Positions 2,812-16,941 of a stretch of 64,000 bases of DNA are shown piece after piece. Both the position numbers and the translations under genes were made by a program. The notes beneath the pieces were generated by a model. The model worked only from the letters and a program-made list of their open reading frames with translations, made no database searches and had not been told where the DNA came from. Origin of the DNA: Candidatus Omnitrophota bacterium (GTDB lineage: Bacteria > Omnitrophota > Gorgyraeia > 1-14-0-20-64-10); assembly GCA_023248155.1 (NCBI GenBank), contig JAHFFE010000001.1, positions 20,873 through 84,872 on the forward strand, given 5' to 3'. Position 1 is the first letter of the stretch. Each line of letters begins with the position of its first letter.

Positions 2812-3984
2812 ATGACACGCGGATTGTATATCCACATTCCATTTTGCGCGCGCAAATGTTTCTACTGCGATTTCGTGATTACCGTAAAACATGCGGCCGG
2901 CGACCGCGCCCGTTTTCTTTCAGTGCTGGAAAAAGATCTGGCGCAGGCGGCCCGCCGGTACAGGCATCTCTCATTTGCAACTCTCTACTTCGGCGGAGGA
3001 ACCCCTTCTCTTCTGACACCCGATGAGCTGCGGCGGATCATGGCCGCAATTCGTCACCAGTTTATAATCGTGCCGGACGCCGAAATCACGCTGGAGCTGA
3101 ATCCCGACGACGCTTCCGAAGAAAAATTGCGCGCATTCCGGAAGTACGGCATCAACCGCATCAGCATCGGCGTGCAATCATTCAACGACCGCCTTTTGCA
3201 GCAGATGGGCCGCCTGCACGACGCCGAAGGGGCCCGCCGGGCGCTGCGCTTGATCCGGGAAACCGGTTTCACGAATGTCAGCGCCGATTTGATCCTGCGC
3301 CTGCCGGAACAAACCGCCGGCGATGTTCGCGACTCCGTCGGAGAACTGATTAAAGCCGGCGTATCGCAAGTGGTGCTGTACGATCTGGATGTCCACGAAA
3401 AAACAGTGTACGGCCTGCGGCAACGGCAAGGCCGGCTTCCGCTTCCCGAAGAACCGCTTCACCGGGAAATGTTTTCGGCGGCATTAACGGCGCTGGAAAA
3501 TGCGGGTTTCGCGCAGTACGAGGTTTCCAGTTTCGCGCGGCCCGGTTTTGAATCGAAACATAACCTGATTTATTGGCGCAACCAGGACTATTTAGGGTTG
3601 GGTCCCGGCGCGTTTTCATACCTCGACGGAACACGCTCTCAATTCGCCGGCAATACGACGCGTTATCTTGAGAAATGCGCCGCCGATGACTGGCAGCCCG
3701 ATACCGCTGAAATTATTTCGCCGCACAACCGGCAGGTGGAAACGCTTTTAACGGGATTGCGGCTGGCCGAAGGAATCGATTTGGCTCAGTTACCGGATTT
3801 GCGAAACCGGTTGGCAGAAGCGCTGCCGCCGTTCATGGAAAAAGAATTGGTGCAGTTAAAAGAAAACCGGCTCTCGATGACGCGGGAAGGACGGTTTATC
3901 GCGGAAACAATTCTTTCGGCGCTGGTTACGCCTTGCTTGGATTCCGGACCAGTTTCTGTTTCCCCGCGCGGTCTAACTTCTTAA
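2812..3984 (+). CDS. hemW: Radical-SAM heme chaperone HemW (HemN-like)
   Basis: 390 aa. The N-terminus YIHIPFCARKCFYCDF carries the CxxxCxxC radical-SAM motif with the conserved flanking hemW residues. Confidence 0.85.
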   Translation: MTRGLYIHIPFCARKCFYCDFVITVKHAAGDRARFLSVLEKDLAQAARRYRHLSFATLYFGGGTPSLLTPDELRRIMAAIRHQFIIVPDAEITLELNPDDASEEKLRAFRKYGINRISIGVQSFNDRLLQQMGRLHDAEGARRALRLIRETGFTNVSADLILRLPEQTAGDVRDSVGELIKAGVSQVVLYDLDVHEKTVYGLRQRQGRLPLPEEPLHREMFSAALTALENAGFAQYEVSSFARPGFESKHNLIYWRNQDYLGLGPGAFSYLDGTRSQFAGNTTRYLEKCAADDWQPDTAEIISPHNRQVETLLTGLRLAEGIDLAQLPDLRNRLAEALPPFMEKELVQLKENRLSMTREGRFIAETILSALVTPCLDSGPVSVSPRGLTS

Positions 3985-4189
3985 TCGCGATCTCACGCTT
4001 CAGCGCCGCGGAACGGCTGGCGCATTTCTGCTGATAAACCAACAGGACCGGACGCCGTGAACGGGTATAGGCCGCGGCTGTTTTACCCGTATTATGCTCG
4101 ACGACCCGTCGATTCAGATCCGTGGTAACGCCGGTGTAGAGCGATCGGTCGCTGCAGCGCACAATATAGACGACCCAGATTGATTTCAA
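3926..4189 (-). CDS. GIY-YIG nuclease family protein (UPF0213-like)
   Basis: The C-terminal 88 aa (IWVVYIVRCSDRSLYTGVTTDLNRRVVEHNTGKTAAAYTRSRRP...IKKL) match the GIY-YIG fold. The probable TTG start is at 4187-4189; the ORF-track N-terminus is an unlikely extension. It converges on and overlaps the hemW 3' end. Confidence 0.5.
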   Translation of the reverse strand: MKSIWVVYIVRCSDRSLYTGVTTDLNRRVVEHNTGKTAAAYTRSRRPVLLVYQQKCASRSAALKREIAIKKLDRAGKQKLVRNPSKA

Positions 4190-5124
4190 GAGTGCCCAAT
4201 TGAAACTGCATGAACCAACGGAAACAACCGCTCCACTTCGCGGCGACTGCACAACGTGGTTCCCTCCGTTAGAACGGCAGCAGTACCGGCAGCAACTCCG
4301 TAACAAACCGCCTTCTGAATCGTGGCGCCTTTTTCGAGTGCCAACAAACAACCGGCAATCGTGGAATCACCCGCGCCGACGCGGCTGAGCGGTTTCACCG
4401 GCGGAGCCTTCACGCGGAAAGCTTCTTGCGCCGTGACAGCCACGGCACCGCGCGCGCCCAGCGTCACCAGTACCAGCGTAATCCCTTTTTTAATCAGAGC
4501 CCTGGCCGCCGCGACAATCTGCGAATCGCTGCCGCAGGCCTTTCCAGTCAGCCGTTTAAATTCATGTTCATTCGGCTTGATCATAAACGGCGCCGCTTGC
4601 ACGCCCCGCACAAGTGCCTGATCATCGGAATCGAGAACACAGCGAACGCCTGCTTTTTTCAGACGGACAATTTGCCGCCGGTAAAAATCGGACGGAACTC
4701 CAGGCGGCAATGATCCGGCCAGCACCCAGAAGGACGGCTTTTCCTTGAGTGAGTGCATTTGGGCGCATAATCGCTTGAGTTCTGCCCCTGTTACTTTCGG
4801 GCCGGGCGCGCGCAGATGAGTTTGGGTCCGGTCGCTTAAATCGGTAATCGTCGTATTGATGCGGGTTTCATTCGTAATTTCGGTAAACCGCTGCCGGATG
4901 CCGGCCCGGTCCAGCCAGTGCGTCAGCATGCGGCCGGTCATGCCGCCGGTCAAGCCGAACGCGCAGCTGCGGCCGCCCAGCTCATGAACCACGCGGCTGA
5001 CATTGACCCCTTTTCCGCCGGCAAACCATTGGTCGCCCTGAATGCGGATCGCGTCATCTTTAGTCAGTTTATGGACCCGAAGATAATGGTCCACCGACGG
5101 ATTCATTGTCAGCGTGGCAATCAT
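4186..5124 (-). CDS. PfkB-family sugar kinase (1-phosphofructokinase / tagatose-6-P kinase-like)
   Basis: 312 aa with a GG dipeptide region and the C-terminal GAGDS motif (VGAGDSTIAG) of ribokinase/pfkB kinases. Confidence 0.7.
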   Translation of the reverse strand: MIATLTMNPSVDHYLRVHKLTKDDAIRIQGDQWFAGGKGVNVSRVVHELGGRSCAFGLTGGMTGRMLTHWLDRAGIRQRFTEITNETRINTTITDLSDRTQTHLRAPGPKVTGAELKRLCAQMHSLKEKPSFWVLAGSLPPGVPSDFYRRQIVRLKKAGVRCVLDSDDQALVRGVQAAPFMIKPNEHEFKRLTGKACGSDSQIVAAARALIKKGITLVLVTLGARGAVAVTAQEAFRVKAPPVKPLSRVGAGDSTIAGCLLALEKGATIQKAVCYGVAAGTAAVLTEGTTLCSRREVERLFPLVHAVSIGHS

Positions 5125-5174
5125 CGACGGTTCCGCATTTTTTTCATTGACGAGCCCTCTGTTTCAGAGTTACT

Positions 5175-5618
5175 GTGAATACCGTGCTGAAGAAATTTCT
5201 GTCCCAATTGCTCGGTTCAAAAAAACCGGCGGCGGCGGCCAAGAAAAAACCGGCGGCCGCTAAAAAAACCGTATCCAAAAAGAAAGCCCCCGCAAAAAAA
5301 CCAACCGCAAAAAAGAAACCGGTTAAAAAACCCGCCAAAAGATCTGTTAAGAAAAAAGCGGCGGCCGAAGGCGCACAGGAAATCGGCCGCGTCGTCGCGT
5401 TCTTTCGAATCCCGGTCGTTGCCGTAATCCGCGCCACGAAACAGCCGCTGAAATCCGGCGACCGAATCTGGATCAAAGGCCACACGACGAACATCAAGAT
5501 GACCGCTTCATCGCTGCAGGTGGACCACAAGCCGGTTTCCGAAGTCAAAAAAGGAAAAGAGGCCGGCCTCAAACTCCCCTCACGCGCGCGCCTCGGCGAC
5601 CGCGTTTATCGAATTTAA
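5175..5618 (+). CDS. Histone H1-like Lys/Ala/Pro-rich basic protein with C-terminal beta-barrel-like domain
   Basis: The N-terminal ~60 aa are AKKP/AAKK repeats. The C-terminal ~75 aa (GDRIWIKGHTTNIKMTASSLQVDHKPVSEVKKGKEAGLKL...GDRVYRI) resemble translation-factor domain II barrels. Confidence 0.5.
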   Translation: MNTVLKKFLSQLLGSKKPAAAAKKKPAAAKKTVSKKKAPAKKPTAKKKPVKKPAKRSVKKKAAAEGAQEIGRVVAFFRIPVVAVIRATKQPLKSGDRIWIKGHTTNIKMTASSLQVDHKPVSEVKKGKEAGLKLPSRARLGDRVYRI

Positions 5619-6016
5619 GAAGACCGCCATTGTTGTTTACTGGCTTCCCACTCGCGCTCCATCGTATAAAACCGAACGCGCTGGTCCGGCGCTAAAACGG
5701 CGACAATTTCCTGCTGCATCTCCATTCGGATTGCTTTAAATCGAGGACGGATCTCGGCGCGCAACGCTTCCATTTTTTCTGTTTTCGCATCTAAAATCTT
5801 TTTCACACGGCTGGTCTGCTCGGTATTCAACCGCAGCTCAGCAATAAACCGGGACAGCAGTTTTTCTTTTTTCTGTTCAGCCGTATATTTTGGAATGCAA
5901 AAAAATTGCTGATGAACGCGCGCCGTCCCAAACCCGGCACCCAGAAGAAATGCGATGACCACCGCAAGGGTGACTGGCTTCCATGCGATTGGGGTCATCA
6001 TGAGGGTGTCTCCCAT
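5615..6016 (-). CDS. Spy/CpxP-family (LTXXQ) periplasmic stress protein
   Basis: 133 aa with an N-terminal TM anchor and an LNTEQ motif plus a helical K/E-rich body. It is the last gene of the ECF sigma operon. Confidence 0.45.
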   Translation of the reverse strand: MGDTLMMTPIAWKPVTLAVVIAFLLGAGFGTARVHQQFFCIPKYTAEQKKEKLLSRFIAELRLNTEQTSRVKKILDAKTEKMEALRAEIRPRFKAIRMEMQQEIVAVLAPDQRVRFYTMEREWEASKQQWRSS

Positions 6017-6441
6017 AAAATTTCAGCGGCGCTTTTATTCGGTTCATGCAGCGTATTAATCCATTGGCTTCCGGCCGGCTGAAGGCTGTCGAGCACCGTC
6101 TCGGCGGAAACATGGGCCGACGGAACTCCGAAATATCCTATGACAAAAATAACGGCCGCGGCCGCCGCAATTCCCAATTCTGGATAAAGCCATTCCGGGA
6201 TCCAGCGTTTCGTCCGGACCGGCAGCGACTCCACGCGGGCCATCACGCGGTCAACGAACGGCGATGACGGTTCCTGCGTTACCCAAGTTGCCACGATTTG
6301 CCGCGTCTGCTGCCACTGCTGCAGCGCCTCACGGCATTCCGCGCATGATTCCAGATGATGCAAAACCGTGCGCATCTGTGGATTGGGCAGCTGGCCTTCT
6401 TCGAAGTCAGCCAATCGTTCCTGAACCCGGTTATGTTCCAT
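5998..6441 (-). CDS. Anti-sigma factor with zf-HC2 zinc finger
   Basis: 147 aa with an HHLESCAEC motif (H-x3-C-x2-C) followed by a TM segment. It lies immediately downstream of, and overlapping, the ECF sigma gene. Confidence 0.6.
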   Translation of the reverse strand: MEHNRVQERLADFEEGQLPNPQMRTVLHHLESCAECREALQQWQQTRQIVATWVTQEPSSPFVDRVMARVESLPVRTKRWIPEWLYPELGIAAAAAVIFVIGYFGVPSAHVSAETVLDSLQPAGSQWINTLHEPNKSAAEILWETPS

Positions 6442-7000
6442 CGCGAAACCCTCGTTTAATTAACCGCGCTTCCAATTCCTTGCGAGCCCGCCGAAGCCGG
6501 GCTTTCACGGCATCGAGCGAACATCCCAGCGCGCGAGCCGTTTCCTGATAACTCATCTCCTGAACTTCCCGCAGCACCAGCACCTCGCGCGCCTGGGGCG
6601 TCATGGCCGTCAGCGCCTGCCGAACTTCCAGCATCCGGTCCGTTGGACGATCAACCCGCGGCTGCACGGCTATTTGGCCTTCAAGCCAATCGCCCTGTTG
6701 TTCGCTCAACGCGTCGAGTGATTCAGCGCGCGTACGAATTTTCCGGCGTAAAAGATCGCGGCAGTGGTTCACCGCGATCCGGTAAATCCAGGTTGAAAAA
6801 CCGGACCGGCCGGCGAACCGGTCCAGTGATTGATACGCTTTGATGAATATTTCTTGAGCGGCGTCATCGGCATCGGCCGCGTTGCCCAAAGCTCCAAGGC
6901 AATACCCGCGGACGCGCGTTTCATACTTACGCACCAAAACCGCGTAGGTCTGAACATCGCCGGAACGAATTTGCTCAATCGCCAGATTCTCTTCATCCAT
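6431..7000 (-). CDS. ECF (group IV) sigma-70 factor
   Basis: 189 aa with a sigma-70 region 2 (FSTWIYRIAVNHCRDLLR) and region 4 (MSYQETARALGCSLDAVKARLRRARKEL). Confidence 0.85.
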   Translation of the reverse strand: MDEENLAIEQIRSGDVQTYAVLVRKYETRVRGYCLGALGNAADADDAAQEIFIKAYQSLDRFAGRSGFSTWIYRIAVNHCRDLLRRKIRTRAESLDALSEQQGDWLEGQIAVQPRVDRPTDRMLEVRQALTAMTPQAREVLVLREVQEMSYQETARALGCSLDAVKARLRRARKELEARLIKRGFRDGT

Positions 7001-7007
7001 ATCCCTA

Positions 7008-7415
7008 TCATTTTAATCCATAAACCGCCTTTAATTGCTCTGCTGTTGGCAGAGACAGATACTGCTCGCCGCGCGGCCCAATATAGACGTTGCCTTGCCG
7101 CCGCAATGTGACCGGCGTATAGCTGCCGTTATCGTTCATCACATTAACAACGACGGTATCTACAGAGGCCGCCGGGACAATAACAGTCCGCGGCGATTCA
7201 CGGTAAATTACGACCGGCCGGCGATGCGAACGATGATGATCCCTCCAACCCTGATGCGAATGTCGCGGAAAATGCCCGACCGAGTAGCGAATGCTCCAGC
7301 CCTCGTCGCGCGAATACCGGTCATGATGCCCGAAATCGCACGAATCAGCCCATGCGGTGGTGGAAAGCGCCATAAAACCGGCGACGATCACCGCAACCCA
7401 CATTAACTTTTTCAT
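7008..7415 (-). CDS. Secreted His/Arg-rich protein, paralog of 7433-7888 (shared C-terminal domain)
   Basis: Signal peptide followed by an HHD/HRSHRR-rich segment. The C-terminus VVVNVMNDNGSYTPVTLRRQGNVYIGPRGEQYLSLPTAEQLKAVYG aligns with the C-terminus of the next gene. Confidence 0.45.
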   Translation of the reverse strand: MKKLMWVAVIVAGFMALSTTAWADSCDFGHHDRYSRDEGWSIRYSVGHFPRHSHQGWRDHHRSHRRPVVIYRESPRTVIVPAASVDTVVVNVMNDNGSYTPVTLRRQGNVYIGPRGEQYLSLPTAEQLKAVYGLK

Positions 7416-7432: not shown

Positions 7433-7888
7433 TTAAAACCCGTAGACCGGACGCAGTTGATCTTCACTGGGTATCTGCAAATAGCGTTCGCCTTTAGGAC
7501 CAACCCATTCGTTGCCATCGCGGCGCAATGTGACCGGTGTGATCGATCCATTGCTGTTATGAACATTGATGACCACAGTGTTGGCCGTCTCCAGCGCCTG
7601 CCGTGCCTGCTGGCTGGATTGATCGTTCTCGGCCGCCATCTCTGCTTTATCCTGTTCGTTGCCGATCACATAACCGCCGGCTCCGCCAACCGCCGCGCCA
7701 ATGGCCGCACCCGCACCTGTCTCACCTGATTGATGACCAATAACGGCACCCAAACCGGCACCGACCAAGCTTCCGATCACGGCGCCAGGAACTGCCTTGC
7801 TATCCTTCTTTTGAGTAGCGCATCCTGCCGATAAAACTGAAACAGAAACAACCAGTAAAGCGGCAACAACATGATTTGAAAGTTTCAT
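7433..7888 (-). CDS. Lipoprotein with glycine-zipper region, paralog of 7008-7415
   Basis: LSAGC lipobox and GxxxG glycine-zipper repeats (GSLVGAGLGAVIG...GAAVGGAGGYVIG). The C-terminus is VVINVHNSNGSITPVTLRRDGNEWVGPKGERYLQIPSEDQLRPVYG. Confidence 0.5.
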   Translation of the reverse strand: MKLSNHVVAALLVVSVSVLSAGCATQKKDSKAVPGAVIGSLVGAGLGAVIGHQSGETGAGAAIGAAVGGAGGYVIGNEQDKAEMAAENDQSSQQARQALETANTVVINVHNSNGSITPVTLRRDGNEWVGPKGERYLQIPSEDQLRPVYGF

Positions 7889-8025
7889 TTTTTGTATCCT
7901 CCTGATTGTTTAGACGAACGGAAGGGGCAAAAAGTGTCAAAAATTTTAGAAGCAAAGGAGTCGGTCCGGGCATGGGAGCCGTGGACACGCTCCCGAACTG
8001 ACTCGAAACCGCGACACGGGCTATT

Positions 8026-8727
8026 TTAGGAGGAGGGGTCTTGCGGTTTTTTAGCGAACGGTTGGTCTTTGAGCACAAACCGGACCGGAATTTTTATTTT
8101 CGATTCAACGGTCAGCATTCCGATATGAGCCGGATCAAATTTCCAACGGCGGATTGTTTTTAGCGACGACTCATCGAGCATTGGGAATCCGGAACTTTTC
8201 TCAATCTCCACTTGAGATGGCCGGCCGGACTTATCAACGGTAACGGCCAACAGCACGAGTCCCTCCTCGCCGCGCGCCAAAGAAGCCCAGGGATACGGCG
8301 GGGCCGGGTTTCTCAAATATTTCGATTTTCCCTCTGCAATTGCGCCGCCGGCAGAATAGAAGGTGGTGGGGTCATTGCCCGGCACCGGTGAACTGCCATC
8401 GCCGACCGGACCGCCTTTTTTCGCTTTCTCGACAGAATCGACAGTCGGCGTTTCTTGCGTGCCCCATTCATTATCGGTTTCAGTTTTTTCCGCTTCTTTT
8501 TGTTCCCGGCGATGGGCCACTGAAAGATCGGTCTGTTCCGCGTTCCCTTCGCGCGGTGCAGCAACTAACGAAATTTCAATGCCGCCGGTTCCGGCTTCCA
8601 CACCATACTGCGCCGGCCGAACAAACAGCACCCCGCCTCCTAAAAAAATCACGCCGTGTAAAATCAACGATCCAAAAATACCCAGGCGGTGGTCTTGTGA
8701 CGGGTTCGAAAGCGGCAACTGGAGCAC
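8026..8727 (-). CDS. tonB: Energy transducer TonB
   Basis: N-terminal TM segment, a Pro/Glu-rich spacer and the TonB C-terminal domain (GEEGLVLLAVTVDKSGRPSQVEI). A GTG at 8725-8727 follows the exbD stop by 4 nt and is preferred over the track start at 8850, which overlaps exbD by 119 nt. Confidence 0.6.
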   Translation of the reverse strand: MLQLPLSNPSQDHRLGIFGSLILHGVIFLGGGVLFVRPAQYGVEAGTGGIEISLVAAPREGNAEQTDLSVAHRREQKEAEKTETDNEWGTQETPTVDSVEKAKKGGPVGDGSSPVPGNDPTTFYSAGGAIAEGKSKYLRNPAPPYPWASLARGEEGLVLLAVTVDKSGRPSQVEIEKSSGFPMLDESSLKTIRRWKFDPAHIGMLTVESKIKIPVRFVLKDQPFAKKPQDPSS

Positions 8728-8731
8728 TGGT

Positions 8732-9163
8732 TTATTCGGTAGTTTGCCCGGCTGCCTTGGCGCCAGTGGTCTGAATTGCAAGTTTTTCAATACCCAGCTG
8801 GCGTACCTGATCCAGAATTTTAACCACATCGCCAAAATAAGCGGTTTCATCGGCGTTAATCAATACTTTCAGATCATCATTCTTCCGCTTCAGCGCTTTC
8901 AGACGGGACGGAACTTCATCGGCTTTCATTAATTCCCGGTTTAAATAAACGCGGCCGGCATCAGTCACCGTGATCGTCACAGAGGTGGTCCTTTGCTGAG
9001 ACTGGCCGGTGGAAGCTTTCGGCAAGTGCACTGAAACACCCTGATTTTTAACCATCGACAGCGACACCATCACGAACGTGGCCAGCAAAAAGAACATGAT
9101 GTCGATCAGCGGGATGATTTCGATGCGCGCGCGGCGGCGCCCCTGCTGGGATGGAATCCTCAT
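8732..9163 (-). CDS. exbD: Biopolymer transport protein ExbD/TolR
   Basis: 143 aa. IPLIDIMFFLLATFVMVS is the single TM of ExbD-family proteins. Confidence 0.8.
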   Translation of the reverse strand: MRIPSQQGRRRARIEIIPLIDIMFFLLATFVMVSLSMVKNQGVSVHLPKASTGQSQQRTTSVTITVTDAGRVYLNRELMKADEVPSRLKALKRKNDDLKVLINADETAYFGDVVKILDQVRQLGIEKLAIQTTGAKAAGQTTE

Positions 9164-9768
9164 TCGCGCCTTGCCGGTTCCATCAATAACAGTTCCAAAT
9201 GGGTCGACGCGTCTTCGATTTCACGTCGGGCTTCCTCGACGCGGGCATTCAGATAGTTAAACGGAATCAACGCGATAATTGCGATCGTCAAACCGAACGC
9301 CGTAGCGATCAGCGCTTCGGCGATGCCGCCGGTAATCGCGTCTGGAGCATCCAACTCCTGCGCTCCCAAAAGACCGAATGAACGGATCAATCCGGATACC
9401 GTGCCCAACAACCCCAGCAACGGCGCCAGCGTAATAATCGTATCGAGTATCGGCAATCCGCGGCTAAATCGTTGAAGTTCCCGCTCGGCCGCCTGCAGCA
9501 GCGCGCTCGAAAACGATTTGTTCCGGTGCTGCAATCCGTAAACCAGCGTGCGCGCGACGAAATCTTCAGAGTTTTTTCCGGTTTCAATCGCCTTGACCAT
9601 ATCGGCGTTTTCCGTCTGGCTCAGAATCTGGGCCACCACGGACGGATTGCGCGAATCCAGTTCCCGCAAAATAAAGATCACCCTCTCGATCACCACGGCC
9701 AGTGCCACAATCGATGTCAGCAACAAGGGCCACATGATCGGCCCGCCCTTCAGAAAAAAATCCAGCAT
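9160..9768 (-). CDS. exbB: MotA/TolQ/ExbB proton channel
   Basis: 202 aa. The TM architecture and the LGLLGTVSGLIRSF motif match the ExbB family. It overlaps exbD by 4 nt. Confidence 0.8.
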   Translation of the reverse strand: MLDFFLKGGPIMWPLLLTSIVALAVVIERVIFILRELDSRNPSVVAQILSQTENADMVKAIETGKNSEDFVARTLVYGLQHRNKSFSSALLQAAERELQRFSRGLPILDTIITLAPLLGLLGTVSGLIRSFGLLGAQELDAPDAITGGIAEALIATAFGLTIAIIALIPFNYLNARVEEARREIEDASTHLELLLMEPARRE

Positions 9769-9836
9769 CGTTCGCTCCCTTTATCTGTTTTTCTTTAACC
9801 GCCGCCAGGCCATCGCGCATCCAGTCCAGATCAACA

Positions 9837-10247
9837 TTATAACCCCGGCCGGCGAAATCGCCGCCGCTTGCGCCTAAAAAACAGGTGCCATGCGATCAGG
9901 AGCGGTGAGCCGAGCCCGAGAATGCTGTGCGCGGCGCTGGTCCACGCACGGAGAGTTTCATTTCCACTGTAATAGAGCCCGTATCCGGTCACAGCCAATC
10001 CGACCGTTACGGCAATAAGCGTATGGCCGCTGGCTAGATTCTTTCCGGCAGCCCTTCCTTTTTTAATATGGGTGGGGATCAAAACTCCAAACACCACCAG
10101 AAAAATCATGGCGGCGGCGCCGTGAATTGCCAGCAGCCATGGGATGGACAACCCGGGGCGATGGAAAATCCACCAAGCTCCTCCGGAGATCCATAGAATC
10201 CATCCGGTGTTATAAAACCAGATTTTCTGTCCCGGCGTGAGTTTCAT
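9837..10247 (-). CDS. His-rich polytopic membrane protein (DUF4405-like, putative haem-b binder)
   Basis: 136 aa with four TM helices and conserved His in TM segments (IFHRPG, AIHGAAAM, IPTHIKKG, IAWHLFF). Its stop overlaps the apbE start. Confidence 0.4.
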   Translation of the reverse strand: MKLTPGQKIWFYNTGWILWISGGAWWIFHRPGLSIPWLLAIHGAAAMIFLVVFGVLIPTHIKKGRAAGKNLASGHTLIAVTVGLAVTGYGLYYSGNETLRAWTSAAHSILGLGSPLLIAWHLFFRRKRRRFRRPGL

Positions 10248-11119
10248 AAACGATTCAGCGACAGTACGCCGCCGCTCTGGCTAAGAACAACTGCCGACGC
10301 CTGAAATTGTCGGAGAACCGGCTGAGGGAAGTCCGGATCAAGAATCACGGCTTTAGTCAGCGCGTCGGCAATAAGGCAGTCAGGTGCAAAAAGAGAAACG
10401 CTTCGACGGCCGATCATCGGTTTGCCGGAGGCGGGATGGATCAATGGGGAAACCCGGCGTTTTCGGAATTGCTTGGCGGAAAAATAAGGTGCCGAGGTGG
10501 CGACAGCTGTTTCACGAAATCGTCCGACACACATAAACTTGTGGGGGGCTCCGGGAAGTCGTATTTGCAGCGGATATTCGCGATTACCGAAAAATCTTAG
10601 GTCACCGCCGGCATTCACGCAACCATACGGCACCCCGTCATTCTTAAGACTTTTTACCATCTGATCGACGGAAAAGCCTTTCGCCACTCCTCCCAAATCG
10701 ATGCAAATGGGACGACGGAATCTCACCCGCCGATCGGGTTGCAGCTCGATATCCCCTGAATCGCCTCCATAATTTCCGGCAGCGGAGAGATGGCGCGGCA
10801 GGTAGCCCCACTCCATGAGCGTGGGCGCCACCGTGCAGTCAAACAATCCTCCCGTCGCCGACCATATTCTCTTGGCCATTTTCAAAACCTGATAGGTATA
10901 GGCGTGAACCTGAACGGGGGCTCTCCGCGCCTCACGGTTCAGAGAGTTCGTCTCACTATCGGCATCATGAAAGCTCATGAGCCGCTGAATCAACGCTCCT
11001 GTATCAAACGCCCGGCTCACCGCTTGCAGCAAACGCTCCCGACGGATCCCGCCGACCGAGATTTCGACAAATGTCCCCAACTGGGGTTTCATCCGCCTTA
11101 ATTCAATCACCGGATTCAT
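10244..11119 (-). CDS. apbE: FAD:protein FMN transferase ApbE
   Basis: 291 aa with the GGVAKGFSVDQ motif (ApbE GG[IV]AKG) and the overall ApbE layout. Confidence 0.8.
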   Translation of the reverse strand: MNPVIELRRMKPQLGTFVEISVGGIRRERLLQAVSRAFDTGALIQRLMSFHDADSETNSLNREARRAPVQVHAYTYQVLKMAKRIWSATGGLFDCTVAPTLMEWGYLPRHLSAAGNYGGDSGDIELQPDRRVRFRRPICIDLGGVAKGFSVDQMVKSLKNDGVPYGCVNAGGDLRFFGNREYPLQIRLPGAPHKFMCVGRFRETAVATSAPYFSAKQFRKRRVSPLIHPASGKPMIGRRSVSLFAPDCLIADALTKAVILDPDFPQPVLRQFQASAVVLSQSGGVLSLNRL

Positions 11120-11657
11120 GCGCCAAGATAATTTGATGTAAGGCCAGAAGCCGCTTCACCCCATCCGTAATATTACGGCACGAAAGCGTTGCCCCCGAAA
11201 TGTTTGGAATGTCCACCTCCAGCTTGAACGGGTCGCTGAGCGATTTCCCTTTAAAATGGCCTCTCCACTCGGCGTCCCGAACTTCTCCTCCGTGGGTTTC
11301 GCGATAACTCAAAATTTCAACGCCGATCACTTTTCCGTCGGCGGATAAGGCGGCGGCATAAGTAATAAATTCGTGCTTGCCGATCACCTCATCCACGATG
11401 AACCACCCCAAGAAACCACCCGCCTTCTCGACCCGCCAGACCCGCTGCTGGTCCCAGCGCTGGCTCATTCCCGAGATCGATTTGATTTGCTTCTTTTGGG
11501 AGGCCGTCAAAAGAACGGTGTGTTCTTTGAAAGTTCCCGCGTCGGGAAACAGCAGCTCTTGCGCCTGCGGAATGGATAGGTAATCCGCCGCGTAAACCGG
11601 GGCCACAATGGCCGCCGGCGACAACAGCGCTATCCGGACCCAGCTGCGCTTGTTCAC
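11103..11657 (-). CDS. Periplasmic FMN-binding domain protein (NqrC/RnfG-like flavinylation target)
   Basis: Signal peptide, then an FMN_bind-like domain carrying the flavinylation motif DIPNISGATLS ([S/T]GA[T/S]). Confidence 0.65.
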   Translation of the reverse strand: MNKRSWVRIALLSPAAIVAPVYAADYLSIPQAQELLFPDAGTFKEHTVLLTASQKKQIKSISGMSQRWDQQRVWRVEKAGGFLGWFIVDEVIGKHEFITYAAALSADGKVIGVEILSYRETHGGEVRDAEWRGHFKGKSLSDPFKLEVDIPNISGATLSCRNITDGVKRLLALHQIILAHESGD

Positions 11658-11659
11658 GA

Positions 11660-12562
11660 CTAAAAGTTAAAGCCGACTTTCAAGCGGACTTCTTGCTTGG
11701 TCTTTTCAATGAGGTGCAGATTGGAAATCGACTGATCCGCATATTCCTCGCCGCCTCCCGCGACCTGAGGGAACCAGGTCAGAGTCGCCCACCATTTCGA
11801 CCCGCCGTAATGGAGTGACGGCCCGGCAAACAAGCTCCATCGCTCCTGCCCCACCTCGGTCTCGAATTCCGTTTCATACAGCGTTTCCGCGCCGATAAAC
11901 CAGTTGGGGGCAAAGCGATAACTCAGTCCAGTCCCCAATTTAAATTCGAGTTCTACTTCAGGGTTTGTCGTCCATTCAAAATCCGTGGGCAGATCGTCAA
12001 TCTCACCCCGGACGGCATAAGTCCCCTCGGTGGCCGCATTCCAAACCCAAATCAGCTGCCCTTCCATAAAATATTTCTGAAGCTGGAGCCCCGTTTCGAG
12101 GGAAGCGGTATCTTTTTTTCGGCCCGAATGAGGATCCAGCCAGGCGTAGTCCAATCCAAGAGTGCCGGACAAACCGATATTGTCTTTTGCCGGGGCCAGG
12201 AAATTGTACTTCAGCGCCGCTTCCATCCCGGAAAGTTTAGGCCCATACTCCTTGTCACCAGGCAAATATCCGTCGATGACCAGCCCTTTGGTGTCAATGC
12301 TCTGAAAATTCAAGCCGCCGGTTGCCGATAAACGATGGGTGACGCCGTATTCCGCTTCGGCTTCCAGATTCCAAGCCGTGTAATCACCCCTGCCTTTGCC
12401 CGACCTGAGCGTGGTCACCTCATAGAGTTCCCATGCCCCTTTCGGCAGCGTTTCGGATCCCTTCACATAACCAAACAGGTTTTCGTCGGCAAATGCCGAT
12501 GATGCGAAAACTGCCACGCCCAGACACAACGCGAACCATTTCAAAAACTTCGTTAACTTCAT
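11660..12562 (-). CDS. Outer-membrane beta-barrel protein
   Basis: 300 aa with a signal peptide, alternating amphipathic beta-strand periodicity and a C-terminal ...KVGFNF ending in an aromatic residue. It heads the FMN-binding and ApbE operon. Confidence 0.5.
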   Translation of the reverse strand: MKLTKFLKWFALCLGVAVFASSAFADENLFGYVKGSETLPKGAWELYEVTTLRSGKGRGDYTAWNLEAEAEYGVTHRLSATGGLNFQSIDTKGLVIDGYLPGDKEYGPKLSGMEAALKYNFLAPAKDNIGLSGTLGLDYAWLDPHSGRKKDTASLETGLQLQKYFMEGQLIWVWNAATEGTYAVRGEIDDLPTDFEWTTNPEVELEFKLGTGLSYRFAPNWFIGAETLYETEFETEVGQERWSLFAGPSLHYGGSKWWATLTWFPQVAGGGEEYADQSISNLHLIEKTKQEVRLKVGFNF

Positions 12563-12563
12563 T

Positions 12564-12815
12564 CTAGGGATCTCCTTGTCTTTTTGTTTTCAGCGTGGGG
12601 GCGCTGGACGCAGAGGTCTCCGCCTTTCTATTCTTATAATTGTCGATTTGAATCACCACGACGCGCTTGCAGCGCGAGCACTTCAACTCCAGCGCGAACT
12701 CCGGCAGAAGCTTTGCCAACAAGCGGCCGCAGCCACAGCGCAGTTCAGAGCCGCACAAACTTACTTCGATTGATCCGCTCACGCTCGGCTGCCGGAAGCT
12801 GCCTGAACCATCCAT
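12564..12815 (-). CDS. Mu Com-like zinc-finger small protein
   Basis: LRCGCGRLLAKLLPEFALELKCSRCKRVVVI matches the Com family C-x2-C...C-x2-C zinc ribbon. The true start is probably an internal TTG giving about 63 aa. Confidence 0.35.
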   Translation of the reverse strand: MDGSGSFRQPSVSGSIEVSLCGSELRCGCGRLLAKLLPEFALELKCSRCKRVVVIQIDNYKNRKAETSASSAPTLKTKRQGDP

Positions 12816-12997
12816 CCGCCTATGCCCGGACGCAGCACGATCAATCCTTCCTTATATAAACATCCGAGCGCCATCAGAAGCAGATCGCGTGAACAGGAAC
12901 GCGAATCCGCAAGCGCTTCAGCCGGCAGCTTCCCTCCGCCGCGTTCCAAAGCCAGTAAAATTTCTCCGGATAAAATGCTCACTTCCGTGATGCTCAT
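12779..12997 (-). CDS. Small winged-helix (DUF2582-like) protein
   Basis: 72 aa. DLLLMALGCLYKEGLIVL resembles the conserved LMALGWL.REGKI helix of small wHTH proteins. It overlaps the Com-like ORF. Confidence 0.3.
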   Translation of the reverse strand: MSITEVSILSGEILLALERGGGKLPAEALADSRSCSRDLLLMALGCLYKEGLIVLRPGIGGWMVQAASGSRA

Positions 12998-13140
12998 TGG
13001 ATTCGCCTCAAAAAATGGTCGGCACGCGACGCAGGGTTATTCGGGGTCTCGCCATTCGGTATGATATTGAGACTTAATCTCAATTAGAGCACCGAAAGGC
13101 GCCTCTGTCAAGATTATTTTTTAAGCGGGACTTTCTCTAT

Positions 13141-13308
13141 TTAATCAGCATTAAGAACCGGCCCCTTGTGATGGGCGCAGGTGCAGCCGGTATCTTCGGC
13201 GCAGCCACGGCAGCAATAATTATCTCCGTCGTCCATGTAACCTTTGCCGCCGTCCTCCCAGCTCTTGTCTTGCTGCATTCCGCAATTCGGACAACTTAAC
13301 TTTGGCAT
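13141..13308 (-). CDS. Bacterial metallothionein-like Cys-rich small protein (SmtA/BmtA-like), 55 aa
   Basis: Hand translation of a sub-60-aa ORF gives MPKLSCPNCGMQQDKSWEDGGKGYMDDGDNYCCRGCAEDTGCTCAHHKGPVLNAD. A GAGGG Shine-Dalgarno lies 6 nt upstream. The motif DG.NYCC.GCAE resembles the SmtA core GLYYCSEACADGH. The ORF is not in the supplied track. Confidence 0.5.
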   Translation of the reverse strand: MPKLSCPNCGMQQDKSWEDGGKGYMDDGDNYCCRGCAEDTGCTCAHHKGPVLNAD

Positions 13309-13310
13309 CG

Positions 13311-13742
13311 TCAGACCCTCCTCTTTCTGAAGAACGTGTGGCTTCCTATTTTGACGGTCACTTCCATCTCTTTGGCCCAGCGAGGGAGGCCGAATTGTTC
13401 CACGTTTTCAAAGTGGGTGGCATTGCGCGTCAGATTAGATCCCTCCCGCGCTTTCTGGAGCGCCCGCCTTGCCTGCTGACGGGTCCAGTCCGGCTGTGCC
13501 AGCAAAAACTGATCGAGGTCCTTCCGCTGAATCCCTGAAAATCCGCGCACGCTCCATTCGCGGTTGCGCAGGACCTCCGCCACTCCGACCTTGCCTTCAT
13601 ACGGCTCTCCGGCCGCTTCTGAAATAATGACGGCCTCCAGAGTACTCTCCCGCCGCTGATCCACATGGGCCATCGCACTCCGTGCGATCAGGAGACTGCT
13701 CACCAAGAAACCGATCCCATAGAATACGGTGTTCTGTTTCAT
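13311..13742 (-). CDS. SleB-type cell-wall hydrolase domain protein
   Basis: Signal peptide and the Hydrolase_2 motif AVIISEAAGEPYEGKVGVAEVLRNR. Confidence 0.6.
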   Translation of the reverse strand: MKQNTVFYGIGFLVSSLLIARSAMAHVDQRRESTLEAVIISEAAGEPYEGKVGVAEVLRNREWSVRGFSGIQRKDLDQFLLAQPDWTRQQARRALQKAREGSNLTRNATHFENVEQFGLPRWAKEMEVTVKIGSHTFFRKRRV

Positions 13743-13787
13743 GGCTGTTCACGGCTTTCGCCGCTCGTAGGGCGGAATAGGTCCTCA

Positions 13788-14156
13788 TCAAATTCGCGGC
13801 ATCTCGACGCCGACGAAGATGGACCGCGCGATGAACCTTCCGCCGATGACCTGGTACTGAACTTTCACTTCTTTCCCGACTGACAATTCTTCCGGTTTCA
13901 ATCGGAGGCCATCCGAAGAAATAATGGACGTCTCCTTATCAAATAAGAAACTGATTCTTCCGGCGCTGTTATTCTCGGTGTCGCCGGAAGCCGGGTAACG
14001 CATCGGCGGTTTTTGCACCGTCAATGTTCCGTGGGTCCGGTCAACCAGAGAAACTTTCCCGGTGGCGACCTGCTGCTGAGAGTCCGCCAGCGGCAGCGCA
14101 TAAGCACTGCCAACGCTTAACAAAAAAATAAGCGCGCCCGCAATCAATCTTTTCAT
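13788..14156 (-). CDS. Periplasmic beta-rich protein, paralog of 14186-14608
   Basis: Signal peptide (MKRLIAGALIFLLSVGSAYA). GKVSLVDRTHGTLTVQ...KVQYQVIGGRFIARSI echoes KVHYKVHGDKRVATSV in the neighbouring gene. The start is taken at the internal Met. Confidence 0.45.
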   Translation of the reverse strand: MKRLIAGALIFLLSVGSAYALPLADSQQQVATGKVSLVDRTHGTLTVQKPPMRYPASGDTENNSAGRISFLFDKETSIISSDGLRLKPEELSVGKEVKVQYQVIGGRFIARSIFVGVEMPRI

Positions 14157-14185
14157 GGTTCCACCTCTTTTTTTTAAGCTCTTCT

Positions 14186-14608
14186 TTAAGGCAGCCCCGG
14201 ACTCTTCCAATCGTTCATGGCGGGGGCAAATCGGGCTGCGGGCATCTGAATTGAGACCGATGTCGCCACCCGTTTATCGCCATGAACTTTATAGTGCACC
14301 TTGACGCGCTGGCCGCGCACCAGCTCCTGAAGCGAGGCGACCTGTCCCTCGAGTAAAACAACGGTCTCCGCGGAATCCAGCACCACATCGACAACGGCAC
14401 TTTCCCCCGTATTCAGACGCAGCGTCAGGGAGGAATGATCCGGCTGCAGAGATTCAATGGTGCCCTCGGCGCTCCCTGAATAATAGGCGGTTGATAAACT
14501 GTTGTTGTTGCAAGAAGCTAACTCCAGCGTATTCACAACAACGATCCCCGCCATGATCACCACAGGTATCCATAGAAGCCTTTTTGTCTCGCTTTTTATC
14601 GGTCTCAT
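14186..14608 (-). CDS. Lipoprotein, paralog of 13788-14156
   Basis: LASC lipobox. GTIESLQPDHSSLTLRL...VKVHYKVHGDKRVATSVSI suggests an OB-fold-like periplasmic domain. It lies downstream of the two-component system. Confidence 0.45.
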   Translation of the reverse strand: MRPIKSETKRLLWIPVVIMAGIVVVNTLELASCNNNSLSTAYYSGSAEGTIESLQPDHSSLTLRLNTGESAVVDVVLDSAETVVLLEGQVASLQELVRGQRVKVHYKVHGDKRVATSVSIQMPAARFAPAMNDWKSPGLP

Positions 14609-14719
14609 CGGAGTACCTCCTTCCAATACTTTTCTCGCTATCCAATAGGAGATTACCGCATGAAGATAAAGCGAGGGTGAACTTTGCGTTACAACTTATT
14701 TATCTGAGACCGGTTCTAA

Positions 14720-16228
14720 TCAGCCGACAGGCGGCGGAACAGAGGGAAACCGGACGGTAAAAATGGCGCCCTGCCCGGGAGGACTTGCGGCGGAAATCTG
14801 TCCACTGTGTACTTCGACAATCCAACGGCACAAACCAAGACCCAAGCCTGTGGATGGCATTTCGCTTTTTGAAGATTTTTTTCTGAAAAATCGATCAAAA
14901 ATATGCGGGAGTTCTTCGGAAGAAATTCCATTGCCCGTGTCGCGCACTATAAGGCAGGCTTCTTTTTCCTGCAAACCCACCGTGAGTGTAATGACCCCGT
15001 GGGCAGGCGTATGCTTGATCGCATTATCCAGAAAATTGACTATCAGCCGTTCCAGCAAAAGGCGTTCGGCCTGGATCCAAACCGTTTGACGGTTTTGAAT
15101 TTCGATCTGCACTAATTTTTTGCTGGCGATTTCCTGCCAGACAGTGCTGATTTTTCTTACCATGGCGTTTAAATTCACCAGCTCCCATTTCAGCGCCGTT
15201 TCAACCGCTTCGTTGTGCGCCAGCATCAACAACTCTTCAATGATGGCCGACATGGCTTCGGCTTTCTGCAGATGCATTTGCAGGACCCGCTGATACTCCT
15301 CGGGAGTCCGGGGCCTTCGCAGCGCTACTTCCAATTAGCCGCGAATCACCGTCAGCGGCGTGCGCAATTCGTGGGAAGCCGCGGCGCTGAATTGACGCAG
15401 CCGCCGGAAATCATTTTGGAGCCGCGCCAGCATATCATTGAGCGTCAACGACAGATCTTTTAATTCATCGGATGTTTCCGGAACGAAAATCCGTTCTTCG
15501 AGGCGCTGAGAGCTGATCCGTTTCGCCTGGGCAATCATAACGCCTACCGGTTCCAGCGCGGTAGCCGCCAGAAACAAACCGGCAGACCGGGCCGCGATCA
15601 GAATGGCTGGGATCAGCACCACCAATGAAAAAAGAAGCCGGTCGGCCAGAGAACCGGCCTGCTTCATAGAAACCGCCACCTGAACTAAATAGAGTATTCG
15701 GTCATTTTCAATCACGGGCCGCGTCACGACCCGGATTCGCTGGTCTTTTCTTTTAAAAGTTTCGTAGACTGTGTTTTTCTTCAGGCCTTCTGTTATAGCG
15801 TAGGGCGTCAATGGCAGATCCATCTGCCGAAAATTTTGCGAGGCGGTTAACAGGTGCCCGGCGCCATCCACCACCCGGAACCGCCGTTCTGCCGTTAAGG
15901 TGTCGGTTTGCCGGGCCCAGCGGCGCAATAACCCCGGAAGCTCCCCCTTTCCAACGCCCCCCGGAATGGCCACGGCCGGGGCATACTCCCAATTGCCTCG
16001 GGTTGCGTGGGTTGTTGATTGTTCCGCTTCACGGAAAGCAAAAATGGTGCCGGCGATATAGTCGGCCCTTAACACGAGCGTCTTATCGATATCCCGTGTA
16101 AGCCCCGTCACGACGGTCAGATAGAGAGCTCCGCCAAACAAAATCAGGATGGCCGCGAGGATCCGGATATACCAGAGCGTTAACACTTCCCGGATGGATT
16201 GCGGACCGGCTCTATTATTGATCATCAA
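14720..16228 (-). pseudogene. Sensor histidine kinase (periplasmic sensor, HAMP, HisKA, HATPase_c) interrupted by one in-frame TAA at 15335-15337
   Basis: Track ORFs 15335-16228 and 14720-15334 are in the same frame. Minus-strand reading gives ...SHELRTPLTVIRG-TAA-LEVALRRPRTPEEY..., and the stop sits where Tyr or Glu normally follows the H-box. The downstream part carries the N, G1 and G2 boxes (DTGNGI, GLGLGL). Confidence 0.5.
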
Positions 16229-16260: not shown

Positions 16261-16941
16261 TCATTTCGTTTCGGGGGTTTTCAGCATATAGCCGCTGTCC
16301 CGAACCGTATGAATCAGTTTTTGATCAAAACCGTCATCCACTTTTTTGCGAAGGCGCGCGATGTGCACATTAATCACATTGGAGAATGTGTCGAAATCGT
16401 GCTCCCACACCTGCTCGGACAGCATGGTTCGCGTGACAACCTGGTTGGCATGGCGCAAAAAATATTCGAGGATGGCGAATTCGCGGCCGGTCAGCTTCAA
16501 TTCGCGCCCGCCGCGCGTAACGCGATGGCGCAGCAGATCCATCTGCAGATCATCGACAGTCAAAACGGTGGAGACGACATCACCCCGCCGGCGGAAGAGC
16601 GCCCTGAGCCGGGCCAGCAGCTCACTGAACTTAAACGGCTTGGTCAGATAATCATCGGCTCCCAAGTTGAGACCGGTGACTTTGTCTTCAAGCCGGTCTT
16701 TCGCGGTAAGAATCAAAACAGGAAGGGTCAGGCGTTTTGCGCGCAGAGTTTTAAGAACTTCAAGACCGCCCACCTTGGGAAGCAGCAGATCCAGAATGAT
16801 TAAATCGTATTTCTCCGTTTCGGCAAGAAAAAGGGCTTTCTCGCCGTCCGGCGCGAGGTCAACCGTGTAATGCTCTTCGCGCAGTCCGCGACGAATAAAA
16901 CTGGAGACCGCCGAATCATCCTCTACCAGAAGAATGCGCAT
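16261..16941 (-). CDS. OmpR-family response regulator
   Basis: 226 aa with a receiver domain (LVEDD...DLIILDLLLP...TAKD) and a winged-helix trans_reg_C domain. Confidence 0.85.
   Translation of the reverse strand: MRILLVEDDSAVSSFIRRGLREEHYTVDLAPDGEKALFLAETEKYDLIILDLLLPKVGGLEVLKTLRAKRLTLPVLILTAKDRLEDKVTGLNLGADDYLTKPFKFSELLARLRALFRRRGDVVSTVLTVDDLQMDLLRHRVTRGGRELKLTGREFAILEYFLRHANQVVTRTMLSEQVWEHDFDTFSNVINVHIARLRKKVDDGFDQKLIHTVRDSGYMLKTPETK

Follow-up and report, generated by a model that had tools for sequence, protein, structure and literature searches.

A conserved four-gene cassette that joins a DUF6662 outer-membrane barrel to a flavoprotein, ApbE and a predicted small cytochrome: a possible periplasmic reductase for iron assimilation

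Introduction

What could an outer-membrane barrel have to do with a flavoprotein, a flavin transferase and a small histidine-rich membrane protein encoded in the same row of genes? The question is raised by positions 9837-12562, minus strand, of a 64,000-nucleotide (nt) stretch of a Candidatus Omnitrophota genome (contig JAHFFE010000001.1, positions 20,873 to 84,872; the whole stretch is called the window here). A first-pass annotation, made from the DNA sequence alone, had read the locus as a four-gene operon for extracytoplasmic flavinylation and electron transfer, possibly across the outer membrane.

We propose, with about even confidence, that the locus, an instance of a conserved four-gene cassette, encodes a periplasmic reductase for iron assimilation. 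What leads us to iron is the combination of Fur boxes, TonB systems and metal-uptake genes near the cassette with published precedent, in which a role as assimilatory iron reductases has been put forward for flavinylation clusters that contain membrane cytochromes (PMC8238504, PMC3751524, PMC11334425).

Results

Conservation of the four-gene cassette

The list of open reading frames (ORFs) of the window holds all four genes on the minus strand where the first-pass annotation had placed them. They encode a DUF6662 outer-membrane barrel of 300 amino acids (aa; 11660-12562), a secreted FMN_bind protein of 184 aa with a GTG start (11103-11657), a 291-aa FAD:protein FMN transferase of the ApbE family (10244-11119; FAD, flavin adenine dinucleotide; FMN, flavin mononucleotide) and a 136-aa four-helix inner-membrane protein that is a predicted di-haem b cytochrome (9837-10247). 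The domain identities given earlier for the first three are borne out by Pfam, the barrel matching both DUF6662 and OMP_b-brl. The junctions had been described as overlapping, and two of the three are (FMN_bind/ApbE by 17 nt, ApbE/membrane protein by 4 nt); the barrel and FMN_bind genes are separated by a gap of 2 nt.

When one genome per species was scanned with a sequence pattern, at least 247 species were found to encode a DUF6662 relative, and 80 loci were fetched. Gene order was scored in the 67 loci with at least 2.1 kb of downstream sequence by searching their ORFs first with single sequences and then with profiles. The order barrel-FMN_bind-ApbE-small membrane protein was exact in 64 of the 67. 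The operon is thus conserved in related genomes, and the inclusion of a barrel, which had been taken for an unusual architecture, is a recurrent one. The cassette occurs in Gamma-, Beta- and Alphaproteobacteria, Bdellovibrionota, Acidobacteriota and Omnitrophota; hosts include Shewanella, Alteromonadaceae, Cellvibrionaceae, Microbulbifer, Alcanivorax, Acinetobacter, Lysobacter, Methylotenera, Aquabacterium, Thiobacillus, Caulobacter, Kordiimonas, Bdellovibrio, Thermoanaerobaculia/Acidobacteriota and Omnitrophota. The closest relative of the window barrel (74% identity) belongs to a Candidatus Omnitrophota metagenome-assembled genome (MAG).

ApbE alone was absent from two of the 67 loci, Fontimonas thermophila (L040, 7950-10109) and a Sinimarinibacterium MAG (L049, 8001-9902), which have only barrel, FMN_bind and cytochrome genes and in which the FMN_bind protein keeps its SGAT/TGAT motif. 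One further locus (L086) has the barrel by itself. Within the window we found no second copy of any cassette component and no further FMN_bind or ApbE.

A search that started from homologues of the 136-aa protein gave the same picture: in all eight contexts FMN_bind and ApbE genes stand behind an outer-membrane barrel, and seven of these are the DUF6662 cassette. The sole exception comes from Omnitrophota (L004/L005, 5211-8450), where a 455-aa Porin_O_P barrel replaces DUF6662 ahead of FMN_bind, ApbE and the cytochrome, in the vicinity of OprB, multicopper-oxidase-like, hemerythrin, Rrf2 and CzcCBA genes. Because an unrelated porin stands in the place of the barrel, these data suggest that having an outer-membrane channel, of whatever family, is part of what the cassette does.

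In one soil lineage (L088, L089, L092 and L093, about 3650-6600) the cassette lies amid housekeeping genes, with rpoC/cob(I)alamin adenosyltransferase on one side and rpsB-tsf on the other, which suggests that it was inserted there as a mobile unit. We found no description of the cassette in the literature on Shewanella, ApbE and the Fur regulon or on FMN-binding proteins, ApbE, TonB, ExbB and iron, and it is not among the entries in the supplements of PMC11334425.

A distinct family of small membrane cytochromes

The first-pass annotation had called the 136-aa protein DUF4405-like and a plausible carrier of haem b. The sole Pfam match of the window protein is to Ni_hydr_CYTB (PF01292, cytochrome b561) and is sub-threshold (E 0.006, 16.8 bits versus 30.1); there was no match to DUF4405 (PF14358) at E<=0.1. 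Among 16 relatives, PF01292 was matched by 13 (best E 7.8e-8) and PF14358 by 12 (best E 2.4e-5). All of the PF14358 matches are sub-threshold, the best cassette orthologue reaching 23 bits against a cut-off of 26.7, and the PF01292 matches of the relatives are likewise sub-threshold with the exception of one cassette orthologue at 30.8 bits. A representative-library search returned a family of 1882 representatives at E<=1e-3, 130-220 aa long, the best 150 of which are all short and offer no bridge to bona fide DUF4405 or b561 proteins. A profile search of Protein Data Bank (PDB) sequences with the family gave nothing meaningful. UniProt labels the Shewanella orthologue ‘DUF4405 domain-containing’. 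DUF4405 cytochromes are described as having six transmembrane (TM) segments (PMC11334425). As judged by these searches, the 136-aa protein is not a member of DUF4405 and represents a distinct four-TM family.

Among 41 metagenomic and 64 genomic homologues exactly four histidines are invariant; TM2 carries H42 and H60, and TM4 carries H107 and H121. The other invariant positions are Y93 and a few glycines. In positive-inside counts, lysine and arginine are frequent at both termini and in the TM2-TM3 loop while loops 1 and 3 are acidic; therefore the predicted topology is N-in/C-in, which would place H42 and H107 on the periplasmic side of the membrane and H60 and H121 on the cytoplasmic side. 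One pair of histidines near each membrane face is the geometry of a two-haem transmembrane wire, and haem binding is predicted on these grounds. The earlier idea of a haem b carrier thus holds up as a prediction, and of the likeness to DUF4405 the four central conserved histidines stand while the PF14358 score and the six TM segments do not.

The AlphaFold2 (AF2) model is a four-helix bundle (mean predicted local distance difference test score, pLDDT, 88.2). Its best Foldseek hit was HyaC, the cytochrome b of E. coli hydrogenase-1 (6g94_A; probability 0.98, E 0.099, TM-score 0.53), and de novo designed di-haem bundles ranked lower. Like b561 proteins and HyaC, to which its best Pfam and Foldseek similarities point, the cassette cytochrome would be a four-helix membrane bundle with bis-histidine haem ligation; in contrast to them, the proteins of its family are shorter (135-175 aa) and have two histidines on TM2 and two on TM4.

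The association of DUF4405 proteins with ApbE, which the first-pass annotation had mentioned, is real (PMC11334425). DUF4405/FezC-type cytochromes are likewise small membrane proteins of apbE clusters, with four conserved histidines placed to bind two b haems across the membrane, and are proposed to supply electrons to a flavinylated extracytosolic protein (PMC11334425). On the other hand, they have six TM segments rather than four, and their partners are Flavodoxin_4 and an energy-coupling factor (ECF) flavin transporter, as opposed to FMN_bind and an outer-membrane barrel. By analogy, the 136-aa protein may work like the DUF4405, PepSY and MsrQ cytochromes that are associated with flavinylation (PMC11334425).

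A secreted flavoprotein and an ApbE that lacks an export signal

The second gene of the cassette encodes a clear FMN_bind protein (PF04205; 43.7 bits versus a cut-off of 22, E 4.4e-11). It carries EVDIPNISGATLSCRN, with Thr157 in NISGATLS as the predicted flavinylation site. The motif NI(S/T)GATLS is conserved in at least 95% of 80 orthologues, in agreement with the flavinylation motif reported by the first-pass annotation. As judged by inspection and hydropathy, the signal peptide (…APVYA|ADYL) combines a basic n-region with a hydrophobic segment of some 15 residues and an A-x-A site, and it is of the Sec type in all cassettes. Export through the twin-arginine translocation (Tat) pathway, which would explain a cytoplasmic ApbE, was ruled out since the signal peptides have no conserved twin arginine.

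The nearest solved relative is RnfG (E 7e-4), and the flavinylation sites of the two proteins align. RnfG and NqrC have in common with the cassette flavoprotein the FMN_bind fold and an SGAT-type phosphoester flavinylation site; however, they are anchored in the membrane within a complex, whereas the cassette protein is soluble and secreted. The possibility that it is a paralogue of an Rnf/Nqr subunit that lacks the motif, raised by the first-pass annotation, was ruled out: the motif is present, the NCBIfam models rnfG (30.5 versus 102) and nqrC (16.1 versus 144) are far below their cut-offs, and the window has no other copy. No other Rnf/Nqr subunits were found beside the cassette in the window or in the cassette loci with annotated neighbours.

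Two further motifs, GKHEFITY and YRETHGGE (window residues 93-100 and 118-123), are nearly invariant (at least 95% in 80 FMN_bind orthologues). From their conservation, they could form a metal- or substrate-binding site beside the flavin.

The third protein matches ApbE (PF02424) at 138.5 bits against a cut-off of 25.6 (E 4e-40), and its relatives in the PDB are TM1553 and the V. cholerae and E. coli ApbEs (E 1e-15 to 1e-12). By these matches it is a genuine member of the family. Its N-terminus begins only about 10 aa before the LGTFVE core, with the same start in all of the approximately 64 orthologous cassettes. Neither a signal peptide nor a lipobox or TM segment is present in the window protein (maximum N-terminal hydropathy 0.99), and an export signal, which an extracytosolic-type ApbE should have, was found in none of the approximately 64 cassettes. 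Where characterized ApbEs have secreted substrates, the enzymes are periplasmic lipoproteins, and ApbEs without a signal are known only for cytosolic substrates (PMC12052999). The earlier label of an extracytoplasmic flavinylation module is therefore in doubt; signal peptides are present on the barrel and the flavoprotein but ApbE has neither signal nor lipobox.

Three ways out of this mismatch are possible. Flavinylation may precede Sec export, another, periplasmic ApbE may carry it out, or the cassette ApbE may be exported by an unrecognized route. The second of these would mean that the module is not self-contained: a separate periplasmic ApbE flavinylates the FMN_bind protein while the signal-less cassette enzyme has some other task, for instance handling flavin in the cytoplasm, hydrolyzing FAD or modifying a cytoplasmic target. 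The lack of an export signal throughout the cassettes fits this explanation, as do the Fontimonas and Sinimarinibacterium loci, which retain the other three genes and the SGAT motif without a cassette ApbE and are thus compatible with a periplasmic enzyme encoded elsewhere. It is also in line with the observations that cytosolic ApbEs serve cytosolic substrates and that some members of the family are FAD pyrophosphatases (PMC12052999, PMC4767422). However, 64 of 67 cassettes retain ApbE, in translational coupling with FMN_bind, which is the usual signature of a cognate enzyme and substrate, and neither the cytochrome nor the barrel offers an alternative candidate motif. We regard a separate flavin transferase as rather unlikely.

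The outer-membrane barrel

The first-pass annotation had predicted an outer-membrane barrel, and the assignment of the first gene product to an outer-membrane protein family is secure by profile hidden Markov model: it matches DUF6662 (PF20367) at 379.5 bits against a gathering cut-off of 27 (E 1.9e-113), and the alignment is near full length (residues 13-300 on profile positions 5-308 of 308). A second Pfam match is to OMP_b-brl (E 4.5e-09). The protein begins with a signal peptide (…SSAFA|DENLF) and ends in a C-terminal phenylalanine. UniRef labels one orthologue ‘Lipoprotein’; this was ruled out for the barrel, which has an A-x-A cleavage site and no canonical or conserved lipobox.

The family comprises 1590 clusters at E<=1e-3. 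Relatives from different phyla are 56-74% identical to the window protein, with a mean column identity of 63%, and the invariant residues are mostly glutamate, aspartate and histidine, as in ETEFETEVGQERW, HSGQDKDT, GGGEQY and LHLIEKT. The mature N-terminus, DENLFGYVKGAETLP, is conserved at alternate positions, and in the AF2 model (pLDDT 82.6, 12 strands) the N-terminal segment is extended and not helical.

The best Foldseek hits of the barrel were FapF (E 1e-9, TM-score 0.62) and the COG4313 channel 4rl8, and one member of the DUF6662 family also matches Phenol_MetA_deg. FapF and the COG4313 channels (Pput2725; Phenol_MetA_deg) are similarly 12-stranded, of similar size and at a TM-score of about 0.6 to DUF6662. 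The sequence identity is only about 10%, however, and the substrates differ, FapF serving an amyloid subunit and the COG4313 channels hydrophobic molecules. DUF6662 also exceeds both by far in conservation and is the more acidic family. In FapF and the COG4313 channels the N-terminal segment plugs the lumen, whereas that of DUF6662 is extended.

The barrel is not a TonB-dependent transporter of the usual kind, since it has 12 strands and 300 aa where 22 strands are required and matches neither Plug (PF07715) nor PF00593. The sequence of the barrel contains no [S/T]GA[S/T] flavinylation motif, and as the cytochrome has none either, a flavinylated barrel or cytochrome was ruled out. In this the barrel differs from the DUF3570 outer-membrane protein, which is itself flavinylated at two sites and occurs with DsbD (PMC8238504, PMC11334425). 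Both are barrel-type outer-membrane proteins within an ApbE cluster with occasional iron-transporter neighbours; however, electrons enter the DUF3570 system through DsbD/thioredoxin and not through a cytochrome b.

Iron-related context

We scored as a Fur box any site with at least 14 of 19 matches to GATAATGATAATCATTATC, and took as controls further intergenic sequences from these loci, of comparable GC content and length. Of the 80 loci, 24 have such a box 20-75 nt ahead of the barrel gene, compared to 8 of 250 controls (Fisher p 2e-10, odds ratio 13). Several of the boxes match almost perfectly, for example GTTAATGATAATGATTATC. TonB-ExbB-ExbD sets adjoin the cassette in 8 of the 80 loci, in addition to the one directly downstream in the window. 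Their placement takes at least three forms: some lie upstream on the cassette strand, some downstream in convergent orientation and some at a greater distance. Other recurrent neighbours are TonB-dependent receptors, an ABC ATPase, ferritin-like proteins and the FTR1 permease.

Two loci carry other metal-related genes. In L090 (876-6453) a fragment of a DtxR-family regulator and an Nramp gene split into two ORFs lie directly upstream of the cassette. In L008 (194-1408) the gene directly upstream encodes a 404-aa protein with an extra C-terminal domain that is ZIP-like by our own reading of its HN(F/A)xEG motifs.

In the window itself, the minus strand continues past a 68-nt gap downstream of the cytochrome gene with genes for ExbB (MotA/TolQ/ExbB family, 9160-9768; MotA_ExbB E 1.4e-30), an ExbD/TolR family protein (8732-9163; ExbD E 7.2e-29) and a TonB-family protein (8026-8850; TonB_C E 3.4e-20, TIGR01352 tonB_Cterm 68.3 bits versus a cut-off of 27.1), all three of which the first-pass annotation had left out. 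The NCBIfam tolQ/exbB matches of ExbB are under the equivalog cut-offs. An AGGGAG sequence resembling a ribosome-binding site precedes the ExbB ATG, and the ExbD start overlaps the ExbB stop by 4 nt. The TonB-family protein has a TM segment with an SxxxH motif (SLILH) and a C-terminal TonB domain; because its longest ORF overlaps ExbD by 119 nt, its true start probably lies downstream of 8850. No terminator-like site was found in the 68-nt gap, and a promoter and terminator scan of 7800-13800 gave nothing above shuffled expectation. The transcription unit is thus very probably longer than the four genes first described, reaching beyond 9837-12562 to include ExbB, ExbD and TonB.

The closest published precedent is provided by the PepSY-like (FoxB/VciB)-DUF2271-DUF4198-ApbE clusters, including Caulobacter CC_3059-3063 (PMC8238504, PMC3751524). 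PepSY-type flavinylation clusters are Fur-repressed (PMC8238504, PMC3751524). They resemble the cassette in being Gram-negative, Fur-regulated, proposed assimilatory ferric reductases in which a membrane cytochrome partners a flavinylated protein of the periplasm, sometimes beside TonB components. In contrast, only the ApbE family is common to both: the cassette has no PepSY, DUF2271 or DUF4198, it adds an outer-membrane barrel of its own, and its ApbE carries no export signal.

Several observations weigh against an iron reductase. The window has no convincing Fur box, with best sites of 11-13 of 19, although GATAATGATAATCATTATC may not be the consensus of its lineage. Most cassettes have no adjoining iron gene, those that do come largely from a few lineages and so amount to few independent events, and the Nramp and ZIP-like neighbours fit manganese or zinc equally well. 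An ApbE without an export signal next to a secreted substrate clashes with the standard scheme of periplasmic flavinylation. The haem-family matches of the cytochrome are all under curated thresholds, with a Foldseek E of 0.099, and a literature search found no paper naming DUF6662.

One alternative is that the same periplasmic relay serves an acceptor other than iron, for instance Mn(III/IV), Cu(II), an organic oxidant or reactive oxygen species (by superoxide/quinone chemistry of the b561 type), and that the barrel imports that substrate. The Nramp/DtxR-family and ZIP-like neighbours are not specific to iron, the Porin_O_P variant of Omnitrophota is found near multicopper-oxidase-like, hemerythrin and CzcCBA genes, the cytochrome is weakly similar to the b561 family of PF01292, and the window has no convincing Fur box. 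On the other hand, the Fur-box enrichment is strong and correctly positioned, the FTR1, ferritin-like, TonB-dependent receptor and TonB-system neighbours are typical of iron, and no alternative substrate has specific support. We consider a non-iron acceptor unlikely.

Other genes around the cassette

Upstream, the barrel start is directly adjoined by a small Zn-ribbon ORF (83 aa, 12564-12815, minus strand) with a CxC…CxxC pattern and a weak match to Mu Com (Zn_ribbon_Com, E 0.013, sub-threshold). A homologue (E 6.5e-11) in L008, the closest Omnitrophota relative, overlaps the barrel start by 4 nt (1487-1711); the ORF was not present at the other fetched loci. It may be a lineage-specific fifth gene and possibly a lineage-specific regulator. 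Next come a 72-aa winged-helix-like ORF with weak Rrf2/GntR matches (12779-12997, minus strand) and a 55-aa cysteine-rich ORF (CPNCG…CCRGC…CTCAHH; 13141-13308, minus strand), neither of which has homologues in the fetched loci. Further upstream, two weakly related small secreted proteins without Pfam matches (13788-14210 and 14186-14626, minus strand; mutual E 4e-06) adjoin two ORFs that by our own reading make up a split sensor kinase (14720-16228). A gene for a response regulator of the OmpR type, with Response_reg and Trans_reg_C domains, is at 16261-16941.

Directly downstream of TonB are genes for two paralogous secreted proteins (7433-7888 and 7008-7415, minus strand), a glycine-zipper lipoprotein-like protein and a histidine-rich protein. 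The two have a common 51-aa C-terminal domain (59% identity, E 2e-21) without a Pfam match. Beyond them lie genes for an extracytoplasmic-function sigma factor (6431-7000) and for its neighbour, a zf-HC2 anti-sigma factor (5998-6441).

Discussion

How might the four proteins work together in reductive iron assimilation? In the mechanism that we favor, two b haems held between TM2 and TM4 of the small protein would move electrons from the membrane or the cytoplasmic side to the periplasmic face. Because the cassette has no NAD(P)H domain, the donor to the cytochrome would be a quinol. The cytochrome would then reduce the covalent FMN expected on Thr157 of the secreted flavoprotein, which would convert Fe(III), free or chelated, to Fe(II) for uptake by an inner-membrane divalent-metal transporter, whichever permease the host has. 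DUF6662, with its very acidic conserved residues, would be a dedicated outer-membrane passage or binding site for an iron species. In the window, the cassette would be joined in one operon with its own ExbB-ExbD-TonB set.

A bolder form of this scheme takes the barrel and the export mismatch together: DUF6662 would be a plug-less, 12-strand iron channel energized by TonB and gated by its N-terminus DENLFGYVKGAETLP, which is invariant, strand-like in its mature form and would occupy the position of a TonB box, while ApbE would flavinylate its Sec substrate before export. Both a TonB-gated plug-less barrel and pre-export flavinylation would be without precedent, if true, and we think the combination very improbable.

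Least credible of all is a conduit in which the barrel houses or docks the flavoprotein so that electrons cross the outer membrane to extracellular acceptors, in extracellular electron transfer (EET) or respiration, as the first-pass annotation had suggested: the barrel has only 12 strands, is FapF/COG4313-like and would be too small for a conduit of the porin-cytochrome kind, whereas MtrB-type conduits have 26 and enclose a decahaem protein; the cassette offers a single FMN, with no c-type multihaem partner as in MtrAB-type porin-cytochromes, no multi-flavinylated protein and no [S/T]GA[S/T] site in the barrel; its hosts include Acinetobacter, Cellvibrio, Microbulbifer and Caulobacter, which are strict aerobes, as well as the predatory Bdellovibrio; and the Fur boxes argue for assimilation and against respiration. 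What speaks for a conduit is that an outer-membrane barrel is invariably the first gene of the cassette, that an unrelated porin substitutes for it in one lineage, and that there are known examples both of flavinylated barrels in the outer membrane (DUF3570) and of flavin-based EET (PMC8238504, PMC11334425).

Each of the four proteins belongs to or resembles a known kind, and the general logic of a periplasmic iron reductase has been proposed for other flavinylation clusters. New are the cassette itself, its dedicated and highly conserved barrel, the family of four-TM, four-histidine cytochromes and the ApbE without an export signal. The cassette would add a fourth type of membrane cytochrome to flavinylation systems, one with four TM segments and two histidines each on TM2 and TM4. 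A secreted substrate encoded beside an ApbE that looks cytoplasmic is a biochemical puzzle whose answer bears on where and when ApbE can act. For DUF6662, an uncharacterized family, the proposal yields a testable prediction, namely a part in Fur-controlled reductive iron uptake with its own outer-membrane channel, and the hosts of the cassette include cultivable and genetically tractable bacteria (Shewanella baltica, ANA-3, Acinetobacter, Bdellovibrio and Microbulbifer) in which this may be pursued.

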